This document shows positions 461 to 33,273 of a stretch of 40,353 nt of DNA, one piece after another. The position numbers and the translations under genes were made by a program. Below the pieces are notes generated by a model. That model was given only the letters and a program-made list of their open reading frames with translations, was not told the DNA's origin and did no database searches. Origin of the DNA: Nemertoderma westbladi (taxonomy: Eukaryota > Animalia > Xenacoelomorpha); assembly GCA_032718475.1 (NCBI GenBank), contig JAUCBJ010008546.1, positions 1-40,353 on the forward strand. The letters run 5' to 3'. Numbering within the stretch: the stretch's first letter is position 1; each line of letters opens with the position of its first letter.

Positions 461-477
461 TAATGAACGTGTTGAGT

Positions 478-535: not shown

Positions 536-944
536 TTGCAGCCTTGAGTTTTATAGACCATACTGGTACCATATTACAGTTCTACTGCAGTCCGCCCTAT
601 GCTGTTGATTTGCAATGGTAACGGTAACTAATAGGCAATAAAGGCCATACTCTGCATATTTGATTCTAACCCAAACAGACGATGTTTTCCAAATCTATTT
701 TCTGTTAATGCTAATTTTTATTAATTATATAAATGATATGAAACGGGCTTAGCTATATTAAATTTGTTTTAATGTTGTAACAAGATAGAAACTTGATAGC
801 TAGTTGGGATCGACCTTATTTATTTTACAATTTTCCTTCATGGCAATTTATTATTGTCTGGGGGGCAATTGTACTGTCACGGATGTATGAAGTAATCACT
901 ATTTTGTACCACAGCATTATAATAATTAAGCGTAGCAGCTACCT

Positions 945-1100
945 TCAGTTCAGTTTGTCCAGAATGACAGAGCGTCGGTCTCCCAACATGGGAGGTTGTG
1001 AGTTCGAGCCCAGAATAGGAATAGCCCACTTTTCGGTGTTAACTATAAGGAACTAAAACTGCTCATCCCGCTGTAATGAGGACCTAGTATATCCTGGGGG
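945..1100 (+). mobile_element. tRNA-derived SINE, 5' part (interrupted by the satellite)
   Basis: Degenerate A-box region followed by AGAGCGTCGGTC; B box GAGTTCGAGCC at 1000-1010; SINE-core-like CATCCCGCTGTAATGAGGACCT...CTGGGGGAGTAA. Confidence 0.55.
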
Positions 1101-10226: not shown

Positions 10227-10261
10227 TTTGAATATTTTTATTCACCAAATTGCTCTTTTTA

Positions 10262-10417
10262 TGTCGGTTGTCTACAGACGGTTGTCGGCTGTCAGTTGTC
10301 CACTGTCGGTTGTCGGCTATCGGTTGTCTACTACTGTCGGTTTTCGGCTGTCGGTTCTCTACTGTCGGTTGTGTACTGTTGGTTGTCCACTGTCGGTTGT
10401 CTACTTCGGTTGTCGGC
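10262..10417. repeat. Degenerate TGTCGGT microsatellite-like array, possibly the head of a Helentron-associated (HINE-like) element
   Basis: Repeated TGTCGGT/TGTCTAC units preceded by a T-run. The element assignment is tentative. Confidence 0.6.
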
Positions 10418-13209: not shown

Positions 13210-13566
13210 GAATGCTACGTCGGTACTGTGTCAAGAACAATCAATGGACACATCTCCAACCAGACACTATATAACAATGGATATGTCTCTTTTGTTCCCC
13301 CAAGCTTGACACTTAAATAAAGCCGCATCCGCTTTTTAGGACAACATAGTTTTCGCCGTGAGGACCAACTGTGCACAATCATGTGCTTTGGCAGCCCAAT
13401 GGAGAAAAAAAGCATGGTGGACAGCCCGTGACTTTCTTGAGACGCCTCTTAAAGGACACTGGCCTTGAAGATGCGGATAATCTCGCGAAAATTATGGGTG
13501 ATAAGGAGTTGTGGCGGCGCAAATTTGTCGATAAGCCGACACAGCATTCTTAATGCACGCTGCATT
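13210..13566 (+). mobile_element. Decayed 3' fragment of the RTE-type LINE
   Basis: Matches 369-460 (CACATCTCCAACCAGACACTATATAAC) and the copy at 32327-32867 (...LLKDTGLEDAD...FVDKPTQHS*). Confidence 0.85.
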
Positions 13567-15776: not shown

Positions 15777-17002
15777 GTTTTTTTTTATTAACACCCCGAG
15801 CGGGGTAACAGGTTATGTTTTATTTAATTAACTATTAGTATTATACAGTGTACTTTAATATACGAAATTAAAATAATTTAAAATATAATAGGTAAAAAAT
15901 AATACTAAAAGGGGATAATCCGAAGACAGAACTAGAGGCTTCCTAGAAGGGATAGGTGTGGGCAACTCGCACATCTAATAGCATGGAGCCGGTTGGAAGC
16001 AGGACCCCCGCAGTAGATACAGGTGCAGGCATCCCCAAGTTCGTGAAAGGGGGTTTTATTTCGGCATATTTTCCAATGGAAACCATGGACAGTTACTCGA
16101 GTTATGAGGTGTCGATTCTTTTGGCCGGGAGAGCGCCACTGTGATGTTGTAAATGCAGGGCCTTCGGAATAATTTTCTGCAACAAATAAGCTTTCTTTTG
16201 TCTGGCGATGTAGTCGATATTGTTCTAGAACAGTAGGTTCAAACATTGAAGGATAACGCAGTGACAAATCTTCTATGTATGTGTTCGTTGGAATCATTTT
16301 CAGGGCCACGGTGGAAGATGCATTTTTTGGCAAACCAAGAAGACGTTTCACATAAGTTGATTTGATGATATCAATTTGTTTAAGGTTCGCGAGAGTAAAG
16401 AATTTGGCGATCTCTGTGAAGGCATAATTAACCATAGGGTCTATTTTCATTTGGAAGATAGTTAGACCAGTGTTAATAGAAACATGGTGAAGATCTTTTA
16501 GGCATCCTATTGCTGAGAAAGCTTTCCTTTTCTTCTGGTTTATGTGTCGTGAGAATGATAACGATGGTTGTAGGGTGACCCCTAGGTACTCGTATTCGTT
16601 GCATAACGGTACTTGGACGCCGTTGTAGTAGAATATATCTGCCCTGGATGTTCGACCGCCTTTCCTAAATTTAATTATTTTAGTTTTCCCCATATTTAAT
16701 TCCATCGAGTTTTTAATGGACCATTTGTAGAGTTCGTTTAGTGCGTTTTGGATATCACTGTTCTTTAGCGAGTATATAACCAGGTCGTCAGCAAAAAATA
16801 TGAATCTTATGGTAGAAGCAATTTGTTGAAGAACTTGTGCCAGGTCCGCAATAAACATCAGGAAGCAAGTAGGTGACAAAGAATCCCCTTGCAAAATACC
16901 CCGAAGTTGAACAATTACATTAGAAAATTTGACACCGTCAAAGACTTTCACAGAGTTTTTCAAGAGGGCCTTTATTAGATTGAGTGTTAATATTGTGATT
17001 GG
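15777..17002 (-). mobile_element. 5'-truncated LINE (RT C-terminal half, Cys/His motif and 3' UTR)
   Basis: Uninterrupted frame 17002-15932 with GILQGDSLSP, FADDL, KTK, YEYLG and CIYC...HAIRC. 3' hairpin ACCCC-GCTC-GGGGT, AATAAA and A-tail. 15-bp TSD AAATAAATAAATATA (15762-15776 / 17003-17017), which is low complexity. Confidence 0.9.
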
Positions 17003-17700
17003 AAATAAATAAATATAAAATATTATTATAAAAATAAGGGCTATAAAACATTTGTAAAAAATACAAATTCTTCATATAAATTTTCAATCCAATTACGACC
17101 AAAAAGTGAAATCCTGGTATTCTTCACAAGGGCGTCTGGGTCTTCTCACTGACTAGGTAGAGTAAAGCATAGCTATTAATTATCTTATATAGTTTTTAGT
17201 TTCAGTCAGTCGTTTCTGTCTGCCATTCCACTCAGTTTCGCCTAGTCGTTGATTTAGAGCTGTCAAGTTTATTATTACCTCCCAATGAATCGAATGTACC
17301 GCTGCTATAGTAGCTGTAATATGAAATATGATGTACCCCGGAGTTATAATATGCTATATAACAACTCGCTGCTTTGTTAAAATGTGGAAATATAATTATT
17401 TTGTTGCGCAAAGAAATTAATTTGAAGCGTGACATTTCATTCTGGAGAGAGAAAAAATAGTGGGATTTAATGTAATACAATATTTATGCATCTATGCAAC
17501 TATAAAGTACTTAAAAAATTCCGCATTTACTATGGCTTTCATTTGAATAACTCTTATGCTGAGTTTTGTATCATTGACTATATTACGTGCTAATGATAAT
17601 AATAATGGCTTTCGACTGGTAATTACTTTAGAGTAACAACGCCATACCCAGAGCGAAATTAATCTTATAAGATTACCATTACTGTATATTTTCACCAGTG

Positions 17701-18650
17701 TACGGACTACGGAGCCCTTAAAGGGATATGAAAAAATATGTGATATGCGTAAAACTTAGAGATGTGAGAAGTGGTTTCTATGTCGTATTTTAAAAATTCA
17801 TACCACGATGGAAGTTGTGTGCACAAGATACTAAGTTGTGCGCACAAGATACTAAGTTGTGCGCACAAGATACTAAGTTGTGCGCACACGATACTAAGTT
17901 GTGCGCACAAGATACTAAGTTGTGCGCACAAGATACTAAGTTGTGCGCACCGATACTAAGTTGTTCGCACAAGATACTAAGTTGTGCGCACAAGATACTA
18001 AGTTGTGCGCACACGATACTAAGTTGTGCGCACAAGATACTAAGTTGTGCGCACACGATACTAAGTTGTGCGCACAAGATACTAAGTTGTGCGCACAAGA
18101 TACTAAGTTGTGCGCACAAGATACTAAGTTGTGCGCACAAGATACTAAGTTGTGCGCACAAGATACTAAGTTGTGCGCACAAGATACTAAGTTGTGCGCA
18201 CAAGATACTAAGTTGTGCGCACAAGATACTAAGTTGTGCGCACAAGATACTAAGTTGTGCGCACACGATACTAAGTTGTGCGCACAAGATACTAAGTTGT
18301 GCGCACAAGATACTAAGTTGTGCGCACAAGATACTAAGTTGTGCGCACAAGATACTAAGTTGTGCGCACAAGATACTAAGTTGTGCGCACACGATACTAA
18401 GTTGTGCGCACAAGATACTAAGTTGTGCGCACAAGATACTAAGTTGTGCGCACAAGATACTAAGTTGTGCGCACAAGATACTAAGTTGTGCGCACAAGAT
18501 ACTAAGTTGTGCGCACAAGATACTAAGTTGTGCGCACAAGATACTAAGTTGTGCGCACAAGATACTAAGTTGTGCGCACAAGATACTAAGTTGTGCGCAC
18601 AAGATACTAAGTTGTGCGCACAAGATACTAAGTTGTGCGCACACGATACT
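17701..18650. mobile_element. Left half of a non-autonomous TIR DNA element with a ~40-copy 21-bp tandem array (17812-18650)
   Basis: Terminus TACGGACTACGGAGCCCTTAAAGGGATATGAAAAAA is the inverted counterpart of ~29578-29617. Repeat unit AAGTTGTGCGCACAAGATACT. TACGG..CCGTA ends recall IS3EU, but no TSD was found. Confidence 0.8.
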
Positions 18651-19290
18651 TCCTTTTCATTGTCTTTAATCAAATAAAATTGATATAAATGTAGTAAAAA
18701 GTGCACAGCACAATAAAAACTGACAGTCATTATAGTGTTACGATTCAAAATACACACTTGAATTAAATGTTACAGTACCAACCACAACCCATAAAAATGG
18801 AATAAGCGCAATAAACAGTTGTTAATATATTACATATTTGAAAGTTGTGTAACCATTTGTAGTGAAGCAATAGTGCAATTTAACAGGTAGAAATAGGGTG
18901 TCTTATTAAAAAAAAAATAATAATAATAATAATCCATGACAATATTCCAGTAGGGCTATTAAAAATTAAATTGAAATAAAATTAGACTCGATTAAAATAT
19001 CGTAAAATCCTGTCATGTTTTCCAGAGAAACTGATACCAACAAGGTCATAAGTCATTCTGATAAATTCAATATTTAAGATATCCTTTATGAGTGGTGTCC
19101 CCATTTCCAGCCGAGACATGAGAGATTTAAAATGATAGCTAAAGTTCAATAAAGATTTAGTTGTGGGTAACATGGTACCGCAGACCCGGAGTGTACTACC
19201 AATGCCACTATACTTTACACCATTGTCATTTAAACACAAAGCTACTCTCAAGGCCGATTGAAGTCTTGTGTTAGGACAGTTCTTTATTCT
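18651..19290 (-). mobile_element. 3' part of a 5'-truncated LINE ('LINE A'): end of ORF2 plus 3' UTR
   Basis: RIKNCPNTRLQSAL...CLND...YSGIGST...SLLNFSY...FIR...FSGKHDRILRYFN aligns with the C-terminus of the 1034-aa ORF2. ATTAAA lies near the 3' end. Confidence 0.85.
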
Positions 19291-19461
19291 TGATTCTAAA
19301 CTGTACAAATAGTTTGAACTGTACTGCTGTACTTGTAAACACTGTAACTGGATGACTGATTGGCCTGACTGTAGATTAAATTATTGTGGGCGCACACTTC
19401 GGCAACCATTCATTGAAATATAATAGGGGGATTTTCGTTGCATGGTGTACAATCCCACCCA

Positions 19462-22400
19462 ATGGATAACGTTCGGAAGATGAGCACGGTCAGGCTCAAA
19501 CGGTACTTAGAGAACTACGGCAAACCCACGGCTGGATCCCGTGCAGAAGTTCTAAGACGCGTTATGTGTCTCATAGATCGCGGAATAGCAGCTGCTCCCT
19601 CGGAGGTTCCGGTACCGGTAGTTAATCTAGTTGACGTTAAAATTCTAACGCCAACAGTTCTGGATCCAAAGTTTCCTGTAACCCGTGACAACCCCACCGA
19701 GGTTCCCGCAACCCGGAACGATTTCGCCGAGGTTCCTGCAACCCGGAACAACTCCTCTGAGGTTCCCATAACCCAGAATGACTCTCCCAAGGTTCCAGTA
19801 ACCCGTAACAACTTGAATGACTTTGCCAAGGTTCCTGCAATCCGGAACGACTACTCTGAGTTTCCAATAACCCAGAACGACTCTCCCAAGGTTCCAGTAA
19901 CCTGTGACAACCCCACCGAGGTTCTCGCAACCTGGAACGATTTCGCCACGGTTCCTGCAACCCGGAACGACTACTCTGAGGTTCCCATAACCCAGAATGA
20001 CTCTCCCAAGGTTCCAGTAACCCGTAACAACTTGAATGACTTTGCCAAGGTTCCTGCAATCCGGAACGACTACTCTGAGTTTCCAATAACCCAGAACGCA
20101 TCTCCCAAGGTTCCAGTAACCTGTGACAACCCCACCGAGGTTCTCGCAACCTGGAACGATTTCACCGAGGTTCCTGCAACCCGGAATGACTCCTCTGTGG
20201 TTCCCATAACCCAGAATGACTCTCCCAAGGTTCAAGTAACCCTTAACAACCTGAATGACTTCGCCAAGGTTCCTGTAACCCAGAACGACTTCACAGAGGT
20301 TCCATTAACCCGTGACAATCCCACCGAGGTTCCATTAACCCGTGACAATCCCACCGAGGTTCGAGTAACCCGTGACAATCCCACCGAGGTTCCATTAACC
20401 CGTGATAATCCCACCAAGGTTCCATTAACCCGTGACAATCCCACCGAGGTTCCATTAACCCGTGACAATACCTACGGGGTTCCATTAACCCATGACAATT
20501 CCACCGATGTTCCATTAACCCGTGACAATCCCACTGAGGTTCCATCAACCCGTGACAATCCCACCGAGGTTCCATTAACCCGTGATAATCCCACCGAGGT
20601 TCCATTAACCCGTGACAATCCCACCGAGGTTCCAGTAACCCGTGACAATCCCACCGAGGTTCCATTAACCCGTGATAATCCCACCAAGGTTCCATTAACC
20701 CGTGACAATCCCACCGAGGTTCCATCAACCCGTGACAATCCCACCGAGGTTCCATTAACCCGTGACAATTCCACCGATGTTCCATTAACCCGTGACAATC
20801 CCACCGAGGTTCCATCAACCCGTGACAATCCCACCGAGGTTCCATTAACCCGTGACAATCCCACCGAGATTCCTATAACCCAGAACGACTTCGCTGAGGT
20901 TCCCTCAAACCGGATCGACTTTACCGAGGTTCCAGTAACCCGTAACAACTCCACCGTGGTTCCAGGAACCCGTAACAACCCCACTGAGGTTCCAGCAACC
21001 CTGAACAACACTGCCAAGGTTCCCGTAACCCGGAGTGACTCTACCAAGATTCCAGTTACCCACGGCCACCCCACTGAAGCTCCAGCAACCCGGAGCAACA
21101 CTGCCGAGGTTCCCATAACCTGTAACAACTCCGCCAAGGTTCCAGTAACCCATGACAACCCCAATGAGGTTCCAGCAACCCGGAATGTGAATGCTAAAGT
21201 TCCTGTAACCCGTAATGACTCCACCAAGTTTTCAGTAACCCGGAACAACTCCACCGAGGTTCCAGTTACCCAGAACAACTCCACTGTGGTTCCAGTAACC
21301 CAGAACGACTCCACTGAGGTTCCCATAATCCGCGACAAACCAACTGATGTTCTAGTAACCCGGAAAGACTCTGCCAAGTTTCCAGCAAACCAGCACAACT
21401 CCACCAAGATTCCAATAACCCGGAACGATTCCGCCGAGGTTCCAGTAACCCAGTACTACTCCACCGAGGTTCTTGTAACCCATGACAAACTAACCAAGGT
21501 TCCAGTAACCCGGAATGACTCCACCGAGATTCCAATAACCCGGAACGACTCCGACAAGGTTCCAGTAACCCAGAACTACTCTGCCAAGGTTCCCGTAACC
21601 TATGACAAACTAACCGTGGCTTCAGTACCCCTGAATGACTTTCCCAAGGTTCCAATAACCCGGAATGGCTCCGCAAAGGTTCCTGTAACCCATGACAACC
21701 CAACAGAGGGTATAGCAACCCGGAACGACTCCCCCGAGGTTCCTGTGACCCGGAATTACTCCGCTGAGGTTCCCGCAACCCACATTGACTCTGCCAAGGT
21801 TGTAGAAACCTACAATGTCTCCCCCGAGTTTCCGGTAACCCAGAATTACTCCGCCGAAGTTCAAGTTCAAGTAATCCATAACAATCCCACTGAGGTTCCT
21901 ATAACCCGTAACGACTCCGCTGAGGTCATCATAACCCGTCACAACTCAGCCGTGTTTCCTGTATCCCATTACAACTCAGCTTCTGTTCCCGCAACCCGGA
22001 ATTTCCCCGCTGAGGTTCCAGTAACCTGTTACGACTACCTCAATGTGAATAGTGGATCTGGGACACAACCTTCTGCCTCCTCATTAAACGCATATGCCTC
22101 CTCATTTGTACCAGAGGTAGAAGACCTGGAAGATGATGGAAGCTGGACATTGAGGCGCCCTAGCATTACTCAATATCCATCTACTGTGCTTAATTCATCT
22201 GATTCACATGTTTTTGGTTCTTATGTTGGTTGTAATAGGGTCGATCTACAATTTCTAGGTGCTTACAATAGTAGTTGCAGTAGCGAGGTTGATTTACATG
22301 ATCTTGGTGCTTACATCAATAGTAGTAAGGCTGAGGTTATAGAGATAGCCCAGAATACTGATAATTATACATCTCCAACCCCTTTACTTAAGACTGGAAC

Positions 22401-25239
22401 TAATTCTATTCCCAATATACTTGACAATATTACTGATATTGAGGTCTATCCAGTCTCCTCCCAATCAAATGGAAAGTCCACTGATCAAATTGACATCATG
22501 ACTAGAAAATTCATGACTGACCACCTTAATATCAGTGATTCATCACGTTATACTGACATTGTTTTGCCAACAGCTAATGACTGTACCACTCTAAATACTT
22601 CTCAGTGGCTCAGTGACAATGTTGTTGATGGTTTTTTAGGAATACTGGAACGCCACTGTCAGAATTCAGTGTGGATATCAAGTGTCCTAACCCAAAAATT
22701 ACAGCATAAAAAGTTTGATACATACACAGCAGCTCAGTATGCATTTAAATACCTGATTGTTAAGCACCCAGTGCAATTTATTTTCTTTCCAGAGTGCTCA
22801 AACTCACATTTTGTTCTCCATGTCGGTGATACAACAACCAAAACAATCACCAGGTTATGTTCTATGGGTTCAACAAGGCCTTCAGCCGTGTCAAGGCGCA
22901 TCAGTTATATTTTAAATGAAGTGGATAGACTCAGCCCAAACCCTTGTAAGCCGGATCTTGAGAGCCATGTCAAGAGGTGGGGAGTATCAGCTTCCAAATA
23001 TGGATTTCCTGTTCAAAAAAATACTTATGACTGTGGTGTGTTTACATGTTTGTATGCTGTTGCGATTGCTTTGGGTAAGAAGGCATTACCAGACTTTTAT
23101 AAAGACAGCCTCTTAGCAAGGCAATGGATACGTGAAACATTAGAATCTCTCAAGTTGAATACTGATGATGTGTACATAAATCCACGTAACATGGATGCTG
23201 ATTCTTTTCCAACATACTCAGAGTATGATCTTTCTTCATTGCTTAATGTTCATAAGAGTACTACCATCAAGACCTTGGGTTCAGTAGAAACTCCAGTCAT
23301 ATCTGCCCTCCGTGATAGACTGTTCTGTGATGTCAAACCATTAATGAAACCCACTCAAGCTGCATCCTTGGAGTTACTCCCCCGTACATTAAAGAGGGAA
23401 CTTTCTACTGATATTTTCGAGTTAATGACTTGTCTCAAAGAGGGTACTTTCACAGCGTCATGCAGAAAAAGATTGAGGCTTAGTTGTAACTCTCACTCCA
23501 ATAGTTCCAGCAGTTCTAGCAATGGGTATGATCTACTGAAACATGAATTGATATCCTGCACTGAACTACTTCAAACTAGGATTACCATTGTCGATAATAA
23601 CAATGAGACCATGAAGCTAGAAATTCGTAACCTGAGGGATGAACTTAGTCAAGAAAGACATTCTAGGATTGTCCTGGAGGCAGAGTTAGAGGAAATTATC
23701 AAAGTAAAACAGAACAGAGAACCATCCACAACTGACTTTGTACCTTTCTCCCCCATTTCTCTCAGAAGGGGAGACGTTAACCTTGACAATTATTTAATAA
23801 TTGACGCAGCAAGTTCTTCAAATGACGATTGCGCCCTTAATTCACAAAATCCCGAATCTGTCAATAGATCATGTGATCTACTGCCTAATTCTCAGCAACA
23901 GAATTTACAAAAATTCCAGAAAGTTCCAACGAAAAAAAAAAAAAAAACTAGGAAACTAAAAAGGCATTGTAGCAATACTAAGGCAACATCTATGAATCAA
24001 GAGAAGGATCACAAGGATCCACAAATCGTTACTGAATCATCATCTGATTCTACTTGCTCTACCACGTTTAGCCCCGATCCTGTCCCACCCAATTGCAAAA
24101 CCACATCAATTCCATCAAGTGGTCTGATTAACAAGCCTACTGCACCGAAGGACACCAAATTCTCTAGTGAAATTTTGAGTATATCAAAGCCAATGCAATT
24201 TACTTCTGAGACATCCCGGCTTAGCACTAAATCATATCCGCGTGCATTTGGTGCCTCATCTAAAATTAATACATCTACTCATGGAACACAACATCTTACC
24301 AATTACGAGTCAGAGGACACACTCCAGTATCCTTACTCTCATCTGTATATAACTGGCGTAAAACGCAAATATAACATAGATGAGGTCACACATTACTTAA
24401 AAGCCAGGAACATAATATCCCATCGCATAAAAATTATTACTTACAACAAAGTTCTTGGAACTATCAATATGCGAGTCACTGTTGATGCTTGCAATGAGGA
24501 CAAAGTTCTTGAAATAAATTTCTGGCCACCCGGTGTGCGCTGCCGACTTTGGCGATTTTCTTCTTTACGCAATACACATCATATGCCTAACACTTATGAA
24601 ATAGGATTTAACACTCAATCTGGTAGAGAGTGCCACCACTATCATAACTATCAAAACTTCAATCATCATGCTTCCAAGAACTGTGGAAAGATTGTTGACC
24701 CAGCACATCTGGACGATTATCAACGACATCCATATGTCAAAGATCGGAACACTCAAATATGTCATGGTATTAATGATTACTCAGCTCAACTTGGTGGAGA
24801 TGGCCGAGGATCTCATTGCTTTAATCGACGTACTTCCAATTGCTATGCTAATGGTGAGGTCTCAGCACAATCGGATAGTGATCACTACACCTCAAGAAAT
24901 TATGCATACAACAATAATTCTAATCAATTACGTGGTTATGGCGGATGCTCCCCCAATTTTGATCATCGGAACACTTCCAACAACAATGCAAACACTAATG
25001 CTTCAGCTCATAACAATGGCGAATATTGCAACACTCATGACTTTGATCCGCATGCTGTGAATACAAGTGATTCAGCAGAATATGGCAGATTTGATCAATA
25101 CACTCACAATTCACCAAATCACCCATATAATTCATATACCTCAAGTAACTTTGTAGATTACAATTCAGCTCACTTTAGTGATGATGGTGCACGCATACGC
25201 GATTGTAACCTTGATCGGAACTTTATGAACTGTGTTTAA
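19462..25239 (+). CDS. LINE B ORF1, ~1925 aa: SAP, 10-aa repeats, PAM2-like motif, Ulp1/C48-like domain, coiled coil, basic patch, RRM-like domain, N/H/Y-rich tail
   Basis: First ATG at 19462 (the track starts at TTG 19438). Motifs: MSTVRLKRYLENYGKPTAGSRAEVLRRV; SLNAYASSFVP; WLSDNVVD...SHFVL...QKNTYDCGVF; HLYITGV...FWPPGVRCRLW. Confidence 0.9.
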   Translation: MDNVRKMSTVRLKRYLENYGKPTAGSRAEVLRRVMCLIDRGIAAAPSEVPVPVVNLVDVKILTPTVLDPKFPVTRDNPTEVPATRNDFAEVPATRNNSSEVPITQNDSPKVPVTRNNLNDFAKVPAIRNDYSEFPITQNDSPKVPVTCDNPTEVLATWNDFATVPATRNDYSEVPITQNDSPKVPVTRNNLNDFAKVPAIRNDYSEFPITQNASPKVPVTCDNPTEVLATWNDFTEVPATRNDSSVVPITQNDSPKVQVTLNNLNDFAKVPVTQNDFTEVPLTRDNPTEVPLTRDNPTEVRVTRDNPTEVPLTRDNPTKVPLTRDNPTEVPLTRDNTYGVPLTHDNSTDVPLTRDNPTEVPSTRDNPTEVPLTRDNPTEVPLTRDNPTEVPVTRDNPTEVPLTRDNPTKVPLTRDNPTEVPSTRDNPTEVPLTRDNSTDVPLTRDNPTEVPSTRDNPTEVPLTRDNPTEIPITQNDFAEVPSNRIDFTEVPVTRNNSTVVPGTRNNPTEVPATLNNTAKVPVTRSDSTKIPVTHGHPTEAPATRSNTAEVPITCNNSAKVPVTHDNPNEVPATRNVNAKVPVTRNDSTKFSVTRNNSTEVPVTQNNSTVVPVTQNDSTEVPIIRDKPTDVLVTRKDSAKFPANQHNSTKIPITRNDSAEVPVTQYYSTEVLVTHDKLTKVPVTRNDSTEIPITRNDSDKVPVTQNYSAKVPVTYDKLTVASVPLNDFPKVPITRNGSAKVPVTHDNPTEGIATRNDSPEVPVTRNYSAEVPATHIDSAKVVETYNVSPEFPVTQNYSAEVQVQVIHNNPTEVPITRNDSAEVIITRHNSAVFPVSHYNSASVPATRNFPAEVPVTCYDYLNVNSGSGTQPSASSLNAYASSFVPEVEDLEDDGSWTLRRPSITQYPSTVLNSSDSHVFGSYVGCNRVDLQFLGAYNSSCSSEVDLHDLGAYINSSKAEVIEIAQNTDNYTSPTPLLKTGTNSIPNILDNITDIEVYPVSSQSNGKSTDQIDIMTRKFMTDHLNISDSSRYTDIVLPTANDCTTLNTSQWLSDNVVDGFLGILERHCQNSVWISSVLTQKLQHKKFDTYTAAQYAFKYLIVKHPVQFIFFPECSNSHFVLHVGDTTTKTITRLCSMGSTRPSAVSRRISYILNEVDRLSPNPCKPDLESHVKRWGVSASKYGFPVQKNTYDCGVFTCLYAVAIALGKKALPDFYKDSLLARQWIRETLESLKLNTDDVYINPRNMDADSFPTYSEYDLSSLLNVHKSTTIKTLGSVETPVISALRDRLFCDVKPLMKPTQAASLELLPRTLKRELSTDIFELMTCLKEGTFTASCRKRLRLSCNSHSNSSSSSSNGYDLLKHELISCTELLQTRITIVDNNNETMKLEIRNLRDELSQERHSRIVLEAELEEIIKVKQNREPSTTDFVPFSPISLRRGDVNLDNYLIIDAASSSNDDCALNSQNPESVNRSCDLLPNSQQQNLQKFQKVPTKKKKKTRKLKRHCSNTKATSMNQEKDHKDPQIVTESSSDSTCSTTFSPDPVPPNCKTTSIPSSGLINKPTAPKDTKFSSEILSISKPMQFTSETSRLSTKSYPRAFGASSKINTSTHGTQHLTNYESEDTLQYPYSHLYITGVKRKYNIDEVTHYLKARNIISHRIKIITYNKVLGTINMRVTVDACNEDKVLEINFWPPGVRCRLWRFSSLRNTHHMPNTYEIGFNTQSGRECHHYHNYQNFNHHASKNCGKIVDPAHLDDYQRHPYVKDRNTQICHGINDYSAQLGGDGRGSHCFNRRTSNCYANGEVSAQSDSDHYTSRNYAYNNNSNQLRGYGGCSPNFDHRNTSNNNANTNASAHNNGEYCNTHDFDPHAVNTSDSAEYGRFDQYTHNSPNHPYNSYTSSNFVDYNSAHFSDDGARIRDCNLDRNFMNCV
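19675..22030 (+). repeat. Coding 30-bp tandem repeat (GAGGTTCCATTAACCCGTGACAATCCCACC; EVPLTRDNPT) within ORF1
   Basis: Directly visible. Most homogeneous at ~20297-20870; a 219-bp higher-order duplication lies at ~19760-20200. Confidence 0.95.
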
Positions 25240-25288
25240 CCCATCATCCAGGCAGCCCAGCAGCAGCACATGTCAAGAGGCTTCTGAA

Positions 25289-28200
25289 ATGCTTAATATA
25301 CGTATAGGTTCCTACAACTGTCATGGTATCAAGTCCAGTATGGATGAGGTAGCTCAGCTTCTAACTGACCTTGATATACTCGCAGTGCAGGAACACTGGC
25401 TAGACGATTTGGAGGCCAAACTACTTTTGCCTAATTTAAATAATGAATTTATCTGCCTCTTCAGCATCGGATCACTAATGCAGAATCCCAATCGGGTACG
25501 TGGTTCAGGCGGTGTATGTTTATGGTTCAGGAGGGATCTATTTCATCATGTTAGTGCCATTTACAGCTCCGATGACATTATTGGTTTCGAGGCTTCCCCT
25601 AAATGTTCTGATGTTTTTGGCCCAAATATCATATTCATCAGTTGTTATGCTCCAGATGCCTCCAAAGATGACAATTTATATGAGGACTTCCTTTCACGCC
25701 TTACAAACATAATCAACCTACACTCTTTCGCAATCCCGTTTATTCTAGGTGACACAAATTCAGATGTTGGCCGTTTGCAAGGACCCCGACACTGCAGGGA
25801 CAATGCAACAAAGCGTGGAAAAAGGCTAAATACTTTTGCTCTGAACAATAACCTTGTCGTCGCGGACACTCTTCCAAAGTTTTCAGGACCTTGTATTACT
25901 TACAGGGGTAATGGAACTTCATACATAGACCACCTTCTAATTAGTAAGCATACTTACGATAATTTACTTGTTGGAGTGATACATGATCAGGACATGTATC
26001 TATTTTCAGATCATGTACCAATAACTGCTGTCTTTAGTTTTCCAACCACAACCTCATCATCACCCAAAGTCGATGCATATAATATTAAGAAGACAAGGGT
26101 TTCACCTAAAGTAGCTTGGAACAGGGTACAAGAATATCATATCCTTAAATATGAGAAGGACATTCAGAATCAGCTGAATACATTATATGAATCTACTTTG
26201 GGACCAGCAATACACTGGACAGGCTTGGAGTTATATGAATTCGTTGTTCGATTTCAAGAAATAATTATAACTGCTGCCAATATCCACTTACCCAAGTGCC
26301 CTAAACGCAGTAAATTAAGTAGAAACTTACGGATTCGATCAGCTGTTTTGCACGACAGATCAAAAACGTGCAGTAAGTTACACTGGTTATGGACCATGAA
26401 TGGCAAGAAAGAAGACTGTAAGTTTGGAGCAGCATTTACAGAATCTCGACGATCACTCAAACGCTTAAAGAACTGGCTTTCAAAGTCAATTGTCACCGAT
26501 AATATTAAGAGGAGGGTGGGGAACATGAAGAGCAATCCACGTAATTTTTGGAATTTTTTCAAAGCCAAGTCTGTCCATACCCCGCCTGAGCTTGCTCAAG
26601 AAGCGATCCGTAAAGACCTCCACGACACCCACTTCAAGAACGATTTGTATGATCAGTCTAGAACCGAGTTTGTTCAGGAGTTGCATGATCGTTGCTCAAC
26701 CACAACTGCTCCTGTAATATCTGCTCTCACTGTGAAAAGAGCTATGGCATCTCTCTCACGAGGTAAATCTCAAGATGCATTTTCATTAGTGGCAGAACAC
26801 TTTCTTTGTTTAAACTCTGACTACACTTATCAGGCTCTCGCCGATATATTCAATGGCTGTTTCAGGTTAGGAGTGCCAGAACTCTTCGGGCACACTATTA
26901 TCACCAGTCTTCACAAAGGAAAAGGTCGGGATCCTCTTCTGGCCAAGTCATATCGCCCTATTTCAACAGTCAGTTGCTTAGGAAAGATTTTTGAATCTGT
27001 GGTACTGGCCGAATTTTTATCAATACCTGAATTCATACCTGGCTCTCAATTCGCATACCAACGCAAGATTGGTTCGGACATAATAATTGGGTGTATCCTT
27101 GAATTCCTTGAAGCACAGCGATCGAGTGGTAAATCGGTTTTCCTATGCCAGATCGACATCAAAGGGGCCTTTGATAATGTTGACCATATATTATTGTTCC
27201 GCAAGTTGTTACAACACATTAATCCGCATATATGTTTCGCTCTATACACTTACTATACATGCACAATGGCATTTCTGAAATTTGGCGACTACATTGATAG
27301 CGACGGGATACACCTAATCAAAGGAGTCAAACAAGGATCCTTACTATCACCCTTATTATTTTTGTTGTATACTAAAGATGCGCTACACAATATGAATGAT
27401 GATGGCGCTGGGTTCAATATAACTTTGATGTGGCTTGGTATCGTGGCTTATGCCGACGATTTTCTTCTTTGCGCCGACACAGCTGCCAAACTTGAGACAC
27501 TTGTTGCTCGCCTTATTGATGTACTAAATGATCTGAAACTTCAGGTCGAACATAGCAAGACAAAATGGATCTGTCATCGTGGAATTGGGACTACCACTGC
27601 ACCGATACCTTGCTTCATTAACGCAGGCGGTACTCTAATAAGCGAAAGTCCTACGTTTGTTTTCCTTGGATTCAATTTATTATCCGCACCCAACTCAAAC
27701 CTCCATAAAGACTGTATCCAGACAATCTCGATACTCTCAGATATGTTCCATCGGAAAGGTTGGACAGTCCGCAACATCGACATTGATACTATTTCCTATC
27801 TGTGGCGAACTATTGCCGTCCCATCTATTTCGTACAGTCTGAAATTCAACATAGGGGCACTCAGTAAGGTTGCCATTGAGAAGGTTGATGTTCACTACCG
27901 CAAGGCATTGCGTGGTCTCCTGCATATTGGTTCCTACGTTGACAACAACATTGTATACAAAATTTTAGGCTGCCATCCCATATCCACAATAGCATATCAA
28001 CTATGTGTTGGGACTATACTGAGGTCTCGTTATTGCCCTAATATAATTTTACAAGCTCTGCTGGGGGTTTGCTTAAATGATACAATGGCCGGTAACCGCC
28101 GTTATGTTGGTCTCGGCTCGACCTATGATGCGTGTAGATGTACTTTCCCACTGCCACGTCTGTCATCATTACTGAGTTACAGCTACAGTATGCGTTCATT

Positions 28201-28336
28201 GAAAGAGAGATTACAACCTGACCAACTCACATATCTAGAGACATTTCAACTCAATTTTATTCGCAGCTGCTATTACTCATCCGGTACTTTCACTGATAAG
28301 CATGAACGTATCCTAAGTTTTTTCAACATTTCATAG
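25289..28336 (+). CDS. LINE B ORF2: AP-endonuclease plus reverse transcriptase
   Basis: APE motifs SYNCHG, VQEHW, GGV, YAP, GDTN, IDH, SDH. RT motifs YRPIS, DIKGAFD, GVKQGSLLSP, YADD. First ATG at 25289, 49 nt after the ORF1 stop (the track starts at GTG 25232). Confidence 0.96.
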   Translation: MLNIRIGSYNCHGIKSSMDEVAQLLTDLDILAVQEHWLDDLEAKLLLPNLNNEFICLFSIGSLMQNPNRVRGSGGVCLWFRRDLFHHVSAIYSSDDIIGFEASPKCSDVFGPNIIFISCYAPDASKDDNLYEDFLSRLTNIINLHSFAIPFILGDTNSDVGRLQGPRHCRDNATKRGKRLNTFALNNNLVVADTLPKFSGPCITYRGNGTSYIDHLLISKHTYDNLLVGVIHDQDMYLFSDHVPITAVFSFPTTTSSSPKVDAYNIKKTRVSPKVAWNRVQEYHILKYEKDIQNQLNTLYESTLGPAIHWTGLELYEFVVRFQEIIITAANIHLPKCPKRSKLSRNLRIRSAVLHDRSKTCSKLHWLWTMNGKKEDCKFGAAFTESRRSLKRLKNWLSKSIVTDNIKRRVGNMKSNPRNFWNFFKAKSVHTPPELAQEAIRKDLHDTHFKNDLYDQSRTEFVQELHDRCSTTTAPVISALTVKRAMASLSRGKSQDAFSLVAEHFLCLNSDYTYQALADIFNGCFRLGVPELFGHTIITSLHKGKGRDPLLAKSYRPISTVSCLGKIFESVVLAEFLSIPEFIPGSQFAYQRKIGSDIIIGCILEFLEAQRSSGKSVFLCQIDIKGAFDNVDHILLFRKLLQHINPHICFALYTYYTCTMAFLKFGDYIDSDGIHLIKGVKQGSLLSPLLFLLYTKDALHNMNDDGAGFNITLMWLGIVAYADDFLLCADTAAKLETLVARLIDVLNDLKLQVEHSKTKWICHRGIGTTTAPIPCFINAGGTLISESPTFVFLGFNLLSAPNSNLHKDCIQTISILSDMFHRKGWTVRNIDIDTISYLWRTIAVPSISYSLKFNIGALSKVAIEKVDVHYRKALRGLLHIGSYVDNNIVYKILGCHPISTIAYQLCVGTILRSRYCPNIILQALLGVCLNDTMAGNRRYVGLGSTYDACRCTFPLPRLSSLLSYSYSMRSLKERLQPDQLTYLETFQLNFIRSCYYSSGTFTDKHERILSFFNIS

Positions 28337-28838
28337 TACAAACGGCAATGTTTTATTTTTTTATGTACTCTGAGTGACAGCATACTCTTTTCCATACACT
28401 ATATTGATTATAACATAATGTTGCCTTCATTGATTATATATTTATTTTACAATTGTGACAATTTCCTCTGCTCGATGTAATAATATCAATTTATAATATT
28501 GACTACAACCACAGGGATGTACCGTTGTAATATTTAAAACTTGGATCAGATTTCAATCGTTAATTATGTATTGTTATTTATTGTATTGCGTATTGCTCAT
28601 TGTCCGGTAATGCTCTAAATCATTTGAACTATTCAGTACAAAGTTTTTGCATGCAAAGTAATTGTGTCCATGAGTGGCGACTGACAACTAACACCTTGCA
28701 TTCTTCAGCCACCTCTATGATATTTTAATCACATACTTTATATTTTTAGCCAGCTGTTTTATTGTGCATTTGCGTGCATTTTTATTTACATTTACCCTGT
28801 ATTGTCGCCTCGTGCGAATTAAATCAAATATATATATA

Positions 28839-29401
28839 TATTCTAAAGAGTAATCCCACAGAGGCCCGAACGGATTCAAGTGACAATGGTCGCACCCCCA
28901 TAAGGTCATAGATTGCAGAGTTACTAACATAGCTGCCGACATGCAATAAGTTTCTGAGGACACGCCGATGCAAGGCATCAATGGACTCCCGTTCAGAACT
29001 AGAAATCGAGCCCATTACAAGGCGGGTAAAGAACAGTAGCCGAGGCTCAGCCACAGACCTCCACAATGTAGCTATGGTATCTATGCTATACCACCTTGTT
29101 GTCCAACCCTTCCTATAGAATAAACTTGAGAGGAGTAACAGTTCTTGACGAATATCGCAAACAATATCATTTTCTGACCCAAAGATTTTTACCCCAAGAA
29201 AGGTCATGTGTCGACCCCGCATAATATTGCAGCCGTTGATTCTTATGCTGCTGTGAATGTCAACACCCATTGGTTTGCCTGTAGGCTCCCGAACGATCCA
29301 ACATGTTTTGGAATCTTCAATGTCCAAAGAAATATTATTTGCACCCACATTAATCCGATCTGTAATAATTTGTAGATCTTTCTCTGAGGAACACATCACG
29401 A
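28839..29401 (-). mobile_element. 5' part of truncated LINE A (RT from just after YADD)
   Basis: SKTCWI...FLG...FYRKGWT...IDTIATLWRSVA.P...LRNLLHVGSYVSN aligns with LINE B ORF2 (SKTKWI...FHRKGWT...IDTISYLWRTIAVP...LRGLLHIGSYVDN). Candidate TSD GATACT at 18645-18650 / 29402-29407. Confidence 0.9.
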
Positions 29402-29617
29402 GATACTAAGTTGTGCGCACAAGATACTAAGTTGTGCGCACAAGATACTAAGTTGTGCGCACAAGATACTAAGACGTGCCGACGTGCGCACACGATACTA
29501 AGTTGTGCGCCAAACTTAGATAAGTTATGCGCAAGATACAACTGTAAGTTGTGCGCACAACTTACGAAACAAAATATTTTTTTTCCAAATGCCCCTTCAG
29601 AGGCTCCGTTCTCCGTA
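29402..29617. mobile_element. Right half of the TIR element with 21-bp repeats
   Basis: Same GATACTAAGTTGTGCGCACAA units in the same orientation, then the terminus TTTTTTCCAAATGCCCCTTCAGAGGCTCCGTTCTCCGTA. Confidence 0.8.
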
Positions 29618-29939: not shown

Positions 29940-30371
29940 TAATTATCAGTATACCAGACTGCCAGACCAGTCCTGTAGTCAGCATGTCAGTTGTAGTAGA
30001 CTAGAGGACTAGTACTAGTACGGTACTGGAGTCCAGTTCCAGTAGTCAGGTAGTGAGTACAGAGTATTCGACTCGAGGGAGGGGGTTGAGGCTAAAGCAG
30101 ATAAGCCGCCCATTCACCATTACACTATTGCTGTAGACCAGTACTGCAGTATACCGGCAATATACAGATATAGGGCCTACAGATATTATAGCTGTATAGG
30201 CCTAGGCACTAACTTCTCGTCTACAAGTCAGCAAGTCCTACTCTACTAGGCCTATTATACCTGTATACTGGTATACCGATAGTATTATTACCGCACACCC
30301 AGGTCTGCTTTCCAGTACAACTGCAGTAGCCTGGTAGCTAGCCTACCGGTTTTATAGCAGTAGGCTATAGA
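29940..30371 (+). promoter_or_regulatory. Probable promoter/5' region of DDX56
   Basis: Dense TAGGCCTA/TAGCCTA/CAGTAC/ACTAGT words, the same signature seen upstream of MASTL. Inference only. Confidence 0.4.
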
Positions 30372-32030
30372 ATGGAGTCGGCAGCTGCGAAAGAAGTTGG
30401 ATTTGCGACGATGGGATTGGACGATCGCTTGTTGAAGGCGATATCGTGGTTGGGTTGGAACAAACCGACGTTGGTACAAGAGAAAGCAATTCCGCTGGCG
30501 CTGGAAGGTAAGGATATACTGGCGAGAGCTCGGACCGGTACCGGTAAGACGGGAGCGATGACGATACCGATGCTACAGAAACTACTTCTAAGAAAGAAAC
30601 TCAAAAACCAACGGTGTATATCCACGCTGATACTAGCTCCCAGCAAGGAGCTTTCCACCCAAATCCACTCGAATATAGTCGGTTTAACTCGATGCTGTCA
30701 GCGGGATGTCCGTGTTCTAGACATATCCTCGGATTGCGACATCGACGAACAAAAACAACTCCTTAAAGATCTTCCCGATATTGTTATTGGAACTCCTAAA
30801 AGGATTGCCAGCCACATTAAGGCCGCCAATATGCTTTTAGATCAACTCAATACAGTTTGTTTGGATGAAGCTGATCTTTTATTCTCCCTCGGTTTCGAGA
30901 GCGACGTTAAGTTTATTATAGATAAACTCCCGAGCGTTTATCAAGCTTTTATGATGTCTGCAACGTTTAATTCCAATGTTAAGTCCATCCGTAAAGTTAT
31001 CCTTCACAACCCAGTGGTGTTGAAACTCAAAGAGAGTCGTTTACCTGAGTCGAATCAACTCGATCAGTTTCATATCGTTTGCAAAGACGACCTCGATAAA
31101 TTCCTTATTATTTGCGCTATTTATAAACTCAAACTACTCCGTGGTCGCTCCATTATATTCGTTAGTTCGGTGGACCGCTGCTATAAAGTCAAGTTGTTTC
31201 TCGACTTATTCAACGTTAAGTGCTGCGTGTTAAACGGGGAACTTCCATTGGAGACGCGATGCCATGTGGTGTCCGAGTTTAATGGGTTGAAGTACAATCA
31301 CATTGTGGCCACGGACACCAAGGCTAAAGGCTCAGAGTACTGCGTGTCCAGGGGGATCGACTTCCAGCAGGTGGACAACGTGGTCAATCTGGATCTCCCG
31401 AAGGATCTCACCGGATACATTCACCGGATCGGTAGGACTGCCCGCGGCGAGCGGTGTGGCACCGCGGTCTCACTGACTCTACCCGAGCAACTGCCTCTAC
31501 TCCGATCCATAGAGGAGGCTTTGAGTAGCGAGTTGGAGCAGAACGAGACGGTAGTTAAATCATTTACGTTTAAGATGGAAGAGATTGAAGGTTTGCGATA
31601 CAGAGTTGAGGACGCCTACAGGTCTGTTAACAAACACGCGGTCTTTCAATGCAGGATGAAGGAGATACGAGCTGAAATGATCAACTCTATTAAATTGAAG
31701 ACTTTCTTTGACGAGAATCCCAGGGACTTACAACTTCTGCGGCAGGATCGACAGAGGAAACCAAATCGTTTGAAGCAGCATCTACAACATATTCCGGACT
31801 ATCTGGTTCCTCAAGGTCTCAAAGATTTACAGGTTGATGAACCGAAGAACGAGGCGAAAGAGGTTCGAGAATCGAAGAAAAGGAGGAAGAAGAATCGTAA
31901 GAGGAAACGTACGGAAGAATCTGTGCCTCGTAGGAATACGGAAGAGGCGTCTAAACGGAAAGCGAAACGACCTAGGTTAACTGATAAAGACCCACTGAGA
32001 TCCTTAAAGATTGGTGATCGCAAACTCTAA
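30372..32030 (+). CDS. DDX56: DEAD-box RNA helicase DDX56/DBP9 (60S biogenesis), single uninterrupted 552-aa ORF
   Basis: GLDDRLL..I..LGW.KPTLVQEKAIPLALEGKD, ARARTGTGKT, LAPSKEL, LDEAD, MSAT, SRGIDF, YIHRIGRTARG, plus DDX56-typical FF.ENPRDLQLLR, HIPDYLVP and the terminal DPLRS. Confidence 0.95.
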   Translation: MESAAAKEVGFATMGLDDRLLKAISWLGWNKPTLVQEKAIPLALEGKDILARARTGTGKTGAMTIPMLQKLLLRKKLKNQRCISTLILAPSKELSTQIHSNIVGLTRCCQRDVRVLDISSDCDIDEQKQLLKDLPDIVIGTPKRIASHIKAANMLLDQLNTVCLDEADLLFSLGFESDVKFIIDKLPSVYQAFMMSATFNSNVKSIRKVILHNPVVLKLKESRLPESNQLDQFHIVCKDDLDKFLIICAIYKLKLLRGRSIIFVSSVDRCYKVKLFLDLFNVKCCVLNGELPLETRCHVVSEFNGLKYNHIVATDTKAKGSEYCVSRGIDFQQVDNVVNLDLPKDLTGYIHRIGRTARGERCGTAVSLTLPEQLPLLRSIEEALSSELEQNETVVKSFTFKMEEIEGLRYRVEDAYRSVNKHAVFQCRMKEIRAEMINSIKLKTFFDENPRDLQLLRQDRQRKPNRLKQHLQHIPDYLVPQGLKDLQVDEPKNEAKEVRESKKRRKKNRKRKRTEESVPRRNTEEASKRKAKRPRLTDKDPLRSLKIGDRKL

Positions 32031-32326: not shown

Positions 32327-33273
32327 CTACTACTAGGATCGGCATGCTGCATTGCAGCTGTATTTTTAAGAATGCTGTGCCGGCTTGTCAACAAAATTGC
32401 ACCGCCACAACTCCCTATCACCCATGACATTTGCTAGATCATCCGCATCTTCAAGGCCAGTGTCCTTTAAGATGCGTCTCAAGAAAGTCATGGGCTGTCC
32501 ACAATGCTTATTCACTCCATGAGGATGCCAAAGTACAAGATTATGCACTGGCTGGTCCTCACGGCGAAAGCAATGTCCTGCAAAGCGGAGGCGATTTTGT
32601 GCTAGTGTCAAGCTTGGGGGAACCAAATTAGACACCTCCAATGTTATATAGTGTCTGGTTGGAGATGTGTGCATTGTACTTGACACAATGAACCCAGCAT
32701 GGACTCCCATAGAAGAGTACTGGAACTACTGCTGCTCTAAATAATCGGACCTTAAGTTTCCGATTAATTCTCGGTGACTTCCAAATCCTGGAAAGCATAT
32801 TCAAGGCTGCCCATGCCTTTCCCTTACGTATTCGAAGGTCCTCACCTGACTTCCGGATCCATGATCCGGTCGCAATGGAGTCAGATATGAGGCCCATCAC
32901 CCATATCTACTCTGGCACACATGACCCACCATTGGCTGTTGCAGCTCATCTGCTGGGTCATGCCCTGTACCCTTGCTGCCAGGTGCAGGTCGCAGTGAAG
33001 TGCTCTCAGAGTGGACATGAGGACACTCTACTCCTGACCAGCCATTGGTAGATCACCATCTGCCTGGTCAGGCCATATACCCCTGCAGCCAAGTATATGG
33101 GTCCTTAATCCAGGACCAAGGGCGTCCTTATCCCAGAACGAAGGGGGTCCTAGTTACAGGACCAGATTTGCCCTAGTAAGAGGGTCTATGCAGCTACAGG
33201 TGGCACCTCCTTTATGCTGCACGGAGGTGGCAAGTTTTCTTGATCAATGACCAAGAATACCTGACCTGACCAT
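32327..33273 (-). mobile_element. Bipartite non-autonomous RTE-type retroelement (putative 5' region fused to the 3' end of RT)
   Basis: 32867-32366 matches the other RTE copies. (TAG)n tail; 9-bp TSD AACTTTGTA at 32318-32326 and 33274-33282. 32868-33273 is GC-richer and hairpin-rich, with no long ORF. Confidence 0.8.

Follow-up and report, generated by a model that had tools for sequence, protein, structure and literature searches.

A Ulp1/SENP-fold domain joined to a coiled-coil/RRM module in ORF1 of an APE-type LINE from Nemertoderma westbladi, with a tentative role against SUMO-dependent silencing

A contig of Nemertoderma westbladi (JAUCBJ010008546.1; the whole stretch of 40,353 nucleotides is referred to as the window) contains one long interspersed nuclear element (LINE) of 9,548 bp (~9.55 kb) with two uninterrupted open reading frames (ORFs), the first of which joins a domain with the predicted fold of the Ulp1/SENP proteases to a coiled-coil/RRM module. 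From the N- to the C-terminus, the 1925-residue ORF1 product comprises a SAP-like start, a long array of decapeptide repeats, a PAM2-like motif, the Ulp1/SENP-type (C48-like) domain, a coiled coil, a basic patch, an RRM-like domain and a low-complexity tail. We tentatively propose that this composite protein acts against SUMO-dependent silencing of the element. As far as could be checked, the occurrence of a Ulp1/SENP-fold domain within ORF1 of a LINE of the apurinic/apyrimidinic endonuclease (APE) type is new.

ORF2 encodes an N-terminal APE endonuclease (Pfam Exo_endo_phos, E 8.9e-12) followed within the same ORF by a reverse transcriptase (RT; RVT_1, E 1.4e-25) with a YADD box in its translation. 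This arrangement, together with a target-site duplication (TSD) and a 3' tail and without long terminal repeats (LTRs) or terminal inverted repeats (TIRs), is that of an APE-type LINE. The 3' tail consists of six to seven TA units, (TA)6-7, starting at 28829, and is not poly(A). An ATTAAA hexamer is located at 28818-28823, about 15 nt ahead of the 3' end of the element, and could be usable as a polyadenylation signal by the transcript despite the (TA)n end of the DNA copy.

The boundaries of the insertion could be defined because the element had landed in another retrotransposon. A tblastn search of the window with ORF2 detected an older and diverged LINE, oriented on the minus strand and interrupted by the element: its upstream half (29405 to 28842) aligned with ORF2 residues 725-912 (33% identity, E 2e-25) and its downstream half (19290 to 18991) with residues 912-1013 (40% identity, E 4e-12), the split point being at the equivalent of ORF2 residue 912, between adjacent codons. 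The hexanucleotide TATTCT at 19285-19290 is repeated at 28839-28844 and constitutes a 6-bp TSD. When the two flanks were translated separately, the codon phase of the older LINE relative to TATTCT was identical in both, and the older frame is therefore continuous after removal of the insert and of one TATTCT copy. An 8-bp TSD, ATTCTAAA (19294-19301 and 28840-28847), is possible but was ranked second because it would shift, and thus break, the frame of the older LINE. A search for internal TIRs that might betray a nested DNA transposon gave nothing convincing (nine weak pairs, the longest of 27 nt at 74%). Since the insert is bounded within a codon-continuous older LINE, every ORF1 module from the SAP-like start to the RRM-like domain arrived with ORF2 in one event, and the whole element, which looks autonomous, retrotransposed as a single unit. 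A nick at the TATTCT site would leave a primer strand ending in ...ATA, able to base-pair with the RNA at its (UA)n end, as would fit target-primed reverse transcription. An initial reading made from the DNA letters without database searches (the sequence-only reading) had described an intact two-ORF APE-RT LINE with TSD and tail at 19291..28838; open ORFs, a 6-bp TSD, a (TA)n tail and the equal phase of the older LINE on both sides of TATTCT bear out both the description and the boundaries. Its concern that the long ORF1 might be a one-off chimera or a misassembly is largely removed, short of an error of the assembly itself, the 9.55 kb being one insert between adjacent codons.

The Pfam profile of Peptidase_C48 matched ORF1 with 24.5 bits, above its curated cut-off of 20.7, and phmmer against the PDB retrieved 14 sequences at E<=1, all of Ulp1/SENP type. 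The best of these, yeast Ulp1 (1euv_A, E 8.8e-8), was aligned over its residues 31-213 of 221, the match thus covering the whole catalytic domain. An exhaustive HMMER search with ORF1 residues 851-1925 against 1.84 billion representative sequences yielded 95 proteins at E<=1e-3, of which none reached E<=1e-10; 92 of the 95 matched on the C48-like domain, with 23-36% identity, and no protein among the 1.84 billion representatives matched both the C48-like and the RRM-like modules. The AlphaFold2 model of residues 1010-1260, computed with 33 homologs as input, had a mean predicted local distance difference test score (pLDDT) of 80.5 and a predicted template modelling score (pTM) of 0.79. Foldseek returned 58 matches to this model at E<=1e-3, with Ulp1 on top (E 3e-10) and Ulp1, SENP1, SENP2 and SENP5 ranking first (for SENP5, template modelling score (TM) 0.85 and root-mean-square deviation (rmsd) 2.6); among the matches shown, these were followed by NEDD8 proteases, bacterial effectors with deubiquitylase or SUMO-protease activity and poxvirus core proteases. 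A profile score above the curated threshold and a Ulp1 fold in the model together confirm the C48-like domain predicted in ORF1, as the sequence-only reading had supposed. A search of the ESM Atlas with residues 1000-1740 gave no usable match, and none of the 17 pattern matches obtained in a metagenome scan with residues 851-1925 was a relative.

In ORF1, 18 of the 20 positions that are at least 85% conserved across the 33 homologs carry the family residue. Three residues at columns invariant in 33/33 homologs are among those kept: H1116 as the catalytic His, Q1185 as the oxyanion Gln and C1191 as the nucleophilic Cys. Both mismatches sit in the catalytic centre. The column of the catalytic Asp (31 D and 2 N among the homologs) is occupied by Cys-1133, whose TGT codon is two base changes away from any Asp codon, and the Trp that follows the catalytic His in 33/33 homologs is replaced by Phe-1117, at a position that we take to be one of the two Trp clamping the Gly-Gly tail of SUMO in Ulp1/SENP. 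The classical triad is consequently incomplete, and because its Asp is replaced we name the domain C48-like and not a proven protease. Given that 18 of 20 conserved columns are kept and that both misses are catalytic, we read the domain as having kept its fold while its active site was remodelled, rather than as decaying at random. The replacement of Asp by Cys and of the substrate-tunnel Trp by Phe implies that activity may be reduced or specificity changed; judged by these residues, true isopeptidase activity is a serious possibility, and the binding of tags without cleavage a rather less probable one.

Residues 1356-1420 gave the best heptad score in ORF1 (with a crude home-made score) and form the sole Pro- and Gly-free stretch of at least 45 residues in the protein. 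The model obtained for three copies of residues 1340-1440 is a parallel bundle in register, with a score of 0.77 compared with 0.40 for the best control, and the model runs shared at least 61% of contacts with pLDDT of at least 72. Of the solved same-chain pairs, 21 of 30 passed the mark applied to this complex score, as did none of 23 single chains, but the calibration was made on two copies, not three; the pass is possibly due in part to predictor memory of a well-known motif, and the model is blind to the difference between dimer and trimer. The models support a parallel self-associating coiled coil, as in L1-type ORF1 proteins. The basic run KKKKKTRKLKR that separates the coiled coil from the RRM-like domain is a putative nuclear localisation signal.

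The model of residues 1560-1730 contains a beta-alpha-beta-beta-alpha-beta core (aa ~1625-1699) with a pLDDT of ~97, followed by a region modelled with low confidence. The core was aligned by VIA-align to Pes4 RRM4 with a Z of 10.1 (rmsd 2.4, 74 aligned residues), RRMs making up most of the top 50 matches with a few of ACT type, and its best Foldseek match was the RRM of MEC-8 (E 6.7e-4). The RRM fold in ORF1 is thus confirmed at the level of the predicted structure. The position of the coiled coil upstream of the RRM-like domain is the order of a type II ORF1, and the L1 Transposase_22 family (PF02994) had no Pfam match in ORF1 at E<=1. The tail behind the RRM-like domain is rich in N (16%), S (10%) and H (9%).

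Three of the HMMER matches (P0064, P0080 and P0097) align to the RRM-like region at residues 1577-1716, and a profile search for longer proteins recovered 16 more relatives of 394-907 residues, with profile E down to 1e-67, on megabase-scale contigs; none of these 16 carries a precomputed C48 domain. The shared block ends in FWPxGxxCRxW. The 90%-identity clusters of the RRM-like relatives can comprise as many as 52 near-identical members spread over different contigs, a pattern typical of transposon proteins, and a search of the ESM Atlas with residues 1600-1720 hit eukaryotic clusters only (0.90-0.92, scores that have the value of leads). The one relative that could be placed in its DNA context (P0118) lies directly upstream of a 1178-residue ORF with APE and RT domains that is collinear with ORF2 (21% identity over 776 aa, E 9e-29), and because it adjoins an APE-RT ORF2 we regard the RRM-like module as a regular LINE ORF1 module. 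The contig that holds this pair (locus L001, positions 1-6093) is titled as a bacterial metagenome-assembled genome (MAG) yet carries a eukaryote-type LINE with RRM-like ORF1 and APE+RT ORF2, and is most likely eukaryotic DNA misbinned into the MAG. In Pfam searches of 24 RRM-like relatives (5 at E<=1e-4, 19 at E<=0.01) neither C48 nor SAP was found, and the only matches were sub-threshold ones of coiled-coil type; phmmer of ORF1 against 19 of the relatives aligned the RRM-like region alone, in 5/19. The absence of C48 and SAP from all 24 indicates that the ~1,350 residues preceding the coiled coil are an add-on of the lineage of this element and not of the wider group.

The N-terminal part of this add-on begins with a stretch that, when residues 1-60 were searched, scored 23.6 bits (E 3.9e-5) with the SAP profile (PF02037; cut-off 23.9), and 17.1 bits when the whole protein was searched; from this sequence match a SAP motif at the ORF1 N-terminus seems probable. 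It is followed by ~79 decapeptides of the form [EK]VP[VLAI]T[RQ][DN][ND][PS][TA], which, divided into 73 pieces, gave 62 pieces of 10 residues, 6 of 20, 3 of 13, 1 of 9 and 1 of 22. At the DNA level, Tandem Repeats Finder (TRF) reported 65.6 copies of a 30-bp unit with 71% match and higher-order periods of 90, 99 and 219 bp. Across this 2.4-kb array the ORF1 frame is the only one open among the three plus-strand frames, and for this reason, and because the length variants occur in multiples of three, we consider with good confidence that the repeats are translated. Behind the array, LNAYASSFVP (aa 875) scored 12.1 bits (E 0.17; cut-off 20) with the PAM2 family (PF07145), the sole family reported in the surrounding 41 residues. 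In a post-hoc test on 20000 shuffles of ORF1, a strict PAM2 pattern was matched in 17 and a relaxed one in 239. Among 7992 candidates scored as relatives of ORF1 residues 1-860, none reached E<=0.001. The series of modules listed for ORF1 by the sequence-only reading is therefore retained for the repeats, the C48 fold, the coiled coil, the basic patch, the RRM-like domain and the tail, whereas its SAP is borderline (near the threshold but below it, with no SAP chain retrieved from the PDB) and its PAM2 weak.

Several known systems combine some of these features. In the available text of Kojima and Jurka 2015 (PMC4640811), NeSL and Utopia-1_TSP of nematodes are described as target-specific, single-ORF elements with zinc fingers, a C-terminal restriction-like endonuclease (RLE) and a Ulp1-like domain. 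The element described here resembles them, to the extent of that description, in being a non-LTR retrotransposon with a Ulp1-like domain N-terminal to the replication machinery, but has an N-terminal APE, two ORFs and a protease-like domain located in ORF1 and fused to a coiled-coil/RRM module; a single ORF with an RLE C-terminal to the RT is not what we observed, and no domain was found after the RT of ORF2. Type II ORF1 proteins (coiled coil, RRM and C-terminal domain) are assigned to the L1, CR1, L2 and R1 clades in the accessible part of Metcalfe and Casane 2014 (PMC4120745). As in the L1-type ORF1 so described, the coiled coil is placed upstream of a single RRM-fold domain, but here Transposase_22 is not matched, ~1,350 extra residues precede the coiled coil and a tail of 220 low-complexity residues follows. 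The RRM-like relatives have 394-913 residues and no C48, compared with 1,925 residues in ORF1. As to the clade of the RT, phmmer of ORF2 against the PDB matched R2 RTs (E 6e-13), with human L1 ORF2p absent from the matches at E<=0.01, and PF14529 also matched; these are leads, as is the end of the element in a tail other than poly(A), and the seven distant matches (21-29% identity) of a word-based search with ORF2 did not separate the clades.

Ulp1-family domains are also carried by DNA transposons. The portion of Bao et al. 2010 (PMC2836005) available to us describes C48/Ulp1 domains in Ginger1 and Mutator-like elements and suggests that these domains contribute to transposition via the SUMO or ubiquitin pathways. 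Those elements, as described there, share with ours the fusion of a Ulp1-family domain to a protein of the element, but are cut-and-paste transposons with the domain on the transposase, whereas here it is on the RNA-binding ORF1 of a retrotransposon. Compared with cellular Ulp1/SENP (1euv, 2iyc, 9gnv), the fold is alike (TM up to 0.85) and His, Gln and Cys are in place, but identity in structural alignments is 21-23%, the Asp and Trp are changed to Cys and Phe, and the domain is embedded in the middle of a transposon ORF rather than being C-terminal as in the host proteins. Zisupton DNA transposons carry SAP plus Ulp1. Modules reported in an ORF1 survey are, in its accessible text, RRM, CCHC, PHD, esterase and coiled coil, with no protease (PMC4120745), and a word search of that text did not find 'SAP'. 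The words 'protease', 'Ulp1' and 'peptidase' were likewise absent from the searchable text of surveys of Jockey-superfamily ORF1, of the CR1 group (2026) and of gastropod non-LTR elements (PMC4120745, PMC13343379, PMC11203168). No APE-type LINE with a C48 domain was found in full-text literature searches, Repbase, Dfam, subscription journals and supplements lying outside this scope; the Ulp1-like domains encountered within the same scope, in the texts as available, belonged only to DNA transposons or to NeSL/Utopia elements of the RLE type. The suggestion of the sequence-only reading that the combination may be undescribed fits these literature searches.

Our proposal for how the parts would work together is as follows. 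The ORF1 protein would self-associate through its coiled coil, bind the RNA of the element in cis via the coiled-coil/RRM-like part and enter the nucleus by means of the basic patch. The add-on would serve as an accessory module, made up of a SAP-like DNA tether, a disordered repeat spacer of ~785 residues, possibly a PABP-binding PAM2 and the C48-like domain, in which the long and flexible repeat arm would bring the Ulp1/SENP-type domain to the ribonucleoprotein (RNP) or, via the SAP-like motif, to DNA. There the C48-like domain would remove, or at least grip, SUMO-type tags on host proteins near the RNP or chromatin, and such local removal or sequestration might keep silencing away from the element or influence how the insertion site is repaired. 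PIAS-type SUMO ligases start with a SAP domain. In the accessible text of three studies (10.1101/533091, 10.1101/2021.07.27.453956, PMC10363806), SUMO ligases and SUMOylation are needed in Drosophila for piRNA-guided heterochromatin and transposon repression. On these two grounds, we consider the local removal or sequestration of SUMO tags to be the most economical function.

Several points weigh against this reading and are given here together with the alternatives that they favor. The catalytic Asp and the Trp beside the catalytic His are both replaced; the SAP score is 0.3 bits under the Pfam cut-off, and phmmer against the PDB with the N-terminal 53 residues retrieved no SAP chain, only ribosomal protein S13 (E ~0.4); the PAM2-like match is not significant and is a lead only; the substrate (SUMO, NEDD8, ubiquitin or a protein of the element itself) cannot be read from the sequence; and the element was examined in one genomic copy only. 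Accordingly, while the anatomy underlying the interpretation in the sequence-only reading holds, its chromatin-tethered deSUMOylation module with a poly(A)-RNP hook stays conjectural, weakened by the Asp and Trp changes, the sub-cut-off SAP and the non-significant PAM2. The active-site changes would also suit a C48-like domain that is a useless passenger or pseudo-enzyme, captured in frame, as a one-off or young event in the lineage of this copy, from either a SENP-type gene of the host or a DNA transposon with C48, and now decaying. The lack of C48 in all 24 RRM-like relatives and of any representative matching both modules points the same way, as does the observed/expected CpG ratio (o/e), which falls to 0.30-0.48 over 22001-24000 (linker, C48-like domain and following stretch) compared with 0.57-1.0 in ORF2, the ratio of the whole window being 0.79; this CpG-poor stretch could have been taken up rather recently from a methylated gene of the host, although its codon usage is already ORF2-like. 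As to possible sources, C48 domains are described as frequently carried by Ginger1, Mutator and other elements in the part of PMC2836005 available. The homologs of the domain (23-36% identity, a signal too thin for a tree) include both host-type SENP-like proteins with a C-terminal C48 and transposon-borne proteins, namely a Ginger-like one with integrase, C48 and UCH (P0028) and a Polinton-like one with C48 and DNA polymerase B (P0053). Random decay would however hardly spare 18 of 20 conserved columns and strike only the catalytic ones, and the confident fold model, a frame open over 5.8 kb, codon usage correlated with that of ORF2 (r 0.63) and the retrotransposition of the entire unit are all at odds with a decaying passenger, which we regard as unlikely.

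The same domain might instead be a maturation protease acting in cis, which would cut the ORF1 precursor at a Gly-Gly of the tail or at a non-canonical site and free the coiled-coil/RRM part from the N-terminal add-on. Clan CE proteases cleave after Gly-Gly, and ORF1 has exactly two such dipeptides, at residues 1778 and 1827, both in the tail; a role of this kind is reported to have been proposed for the Ulp1-like domain of NeSL, and in NeSL and Utopia-1_TSP the Ulp1-like protease is N-terminal in a single polyprotein, according to the available text of PMC4640811. As both sites are downstream of the RRM-like domain, cutting there would merely trim the tail; the Asp-to-Cys change weakens cleavage in this case too, the conservation of the sites cannot be judged from one copy, and maturation in cis appears to us distinctly improbable. 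Other LINEs can begin with GC-rich tandem-repeat promoters or untranslated regions (UTRs); the first ~855 codons could likewise be such an untranslated 5' region, ORF1 then starting further downstream, for example at Met 1011 or 1016, and yielding a C48-coiled coil-RRM protein of ~915 residues. Composition favors this alternative, since GC is 0.50-0.52 in the N-terminal part and repeats, with CpG o/e of 0.64-1.02, versus a GC of 0.39-0.40 from residue 856 onward, and the correlation of relative synonymous codon usage (RSCU) with ORF2 is -0.17 and 0.16 in the N-terminal parts versus 0.33-0.67 in the segments from residue 856. A codon-position test gave no sign of protein-level selection on the repeats (entropy at codon positions 1/2/3 of 0.90/0.50/0.75, with synonymous:nonsynonymous counts like those of the other two frames), and no relatives were found for residues 1-860 among the candidates scored. 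The ORF1 frame is nonetheless the only plus-strand frame open through the array, all repeat length variants are multiples of three although the array, ~71% self-identical, is old enough to have acquired frame-breaking indels, and the near-threshold SAP motif lies in frame right behind the first ATG; an untranslated 5' region is, in our judgement, as poorly favored as maturation in cis. The least probable of the alternatives, and a very remote one, is that ORF1 owes its length to faulty assembly or to a chimera of a LINE and an unrelated gene formed after insertion: a single copy was seen and composition shifts at ~22000, but a 6-bp TSD bounds the insert inside a codon-continuous older LINE, internal TIRs are lacking and one open frame runs through all junctions. 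A LINE ORF1 whose Ulp1/SENP-fold domain is put to use against SUMO-dependent silencing thus remains the reading that we tentatively prefer.

The surroundings of the element were also inspected. A 21-bp satellite (unit AAGTTGTGCGCACAAGATACT) flanks the older LINE at 17812-18650 (40 copies, 97%) and at 29397-29473, and its presence on both sides implies that the older, 5'-truncated LINE inserted into the satellite and the new LINE later into the older one, giving a three-layer nest. A 379-aa frame at 15932-17071 (-) contains a partial RVT_1 (E 2e-15) and, having no tblastn match to ORF2 at E<=1e-3, is a fragment of a different retroelement. An intronless frame of 562 aa at 30342-32030 (+) encodes a DEAD-box helicase (DEAD E 5e-36, Helicase_C E 2e-20) that may represent an exon of a host gene, a retrogene or cargo of a transposon. 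Between ~958 and 6500 there is a long tandem array, rich in G and poor in C, that has a period of 24 bp and a 6-bp sub-phase (GC 0.26-0.29, GC skew 0.8-0.97), open in several frames on both strands. Dispersed inverted repeats of ~180-300 bp at 149-459, 13242-13553 and 32366-32867 (149-326 versus 32690-32867, 98%; 13371-13553 versus 32366-32548, 87%) suggest a short interspersed element present in several copies, and a 14-bp tandem repeat (TGTCGGTTGTC-like, 9 copies) at 10248-10415 lies in a 131-aa minus-strand frame without a Pfam match. Coordinates of the element and of its immediate flanks are given in Table 1.

Table 1 Features of the LINE insertion and of the older LINE that it interrupts (window positions).
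Feature	Positions	Strand	Basis
Older LINE, downstream half (ORF2-equivalent aa 912-1013)	18991..19290	-	tblastn
5' TSD copy TATTCT	19285..19290	+	recurs at 28839-28844; phase of older LINE matches
Whole LINE insertion, 9,548 bp	19291..28838	+	older LINE split at 19290 / 28842
5' UTR, 171 nt	19291..19461	+	first in-frame ATG at 19462; open frame begins at 19417
ORF1, 1925 aa	19462..25239	+	open reading frame
SAP-like motif, aa 4-36, borderline	19471..19569	+	Pfam
~79 decapeptide repeats, aa ~70-855	19669..22026	+	GC 0.52, unlike remainder of element
PAM2-like LNAYASSFVP, aa 875-884, weak	22084..22113	+	Pfam, shuffles
C48 (Ulp1/SENP)-fold domain, aa ~1032-1225	22555..23136	+	sequence and predicted fold
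Predicted coiled coil, aa 1356-1420	23527..23721	+	heptad score, three-copy model
Basic patch KKKKKTRKLKR, aa 1491-1501	23932..23964	+	sequence
Predicted RRM-fold core, aa 1625-1699, ends FWPPGVRCRLW; homology aa 1577-1716	24334..24558	+	model, homologs
N/S/H/Y-rich low-complexity tail, aa 1706-1925	24577..25236	+	composition
ORF2, 1015 aa, APE (aa 7-242) and RT (aa 548-797, YADD)	25289..28336	+	Pfam
3' UTR (~500 nt) ending in (TA)n from 28829	28337..28838	+	sequence
3' TSD copy TATTCT	28839..28844	+	sequence, phase
Older 5'-truncated LINE, upstream half (ORF2-equivalent aa 725-912)	28842..29405	-	tblastn

LINE ORF1 proteins are commonly thought of as small RNA chaperones. With the element described here, the link between mobile elements and proteases of ubiquitin-like tags, known from Mutator, Ginger, NeSL/Utopia and Polinton-type elements, is extended to a new class of element, and the fact that two active-site residues have selectively changed, in a fold otherwise well preserved, raises a question in itself. 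The element provides a test case for the target of such domains, be it host silencing, DNA-repair signalling or the protein of the element itself. In its fullest form, which we consider doubtful, our proposal would make this the first known APE-type LINE with a SUMO deconjugase in ORF1, tethered by SAP, held out on a spacer and stripping the SUMO marks required by the small-RNA-guided heterochromatin machinery of the host; if true, an animal-type LINE would encode an anti-silencing factor of its own.

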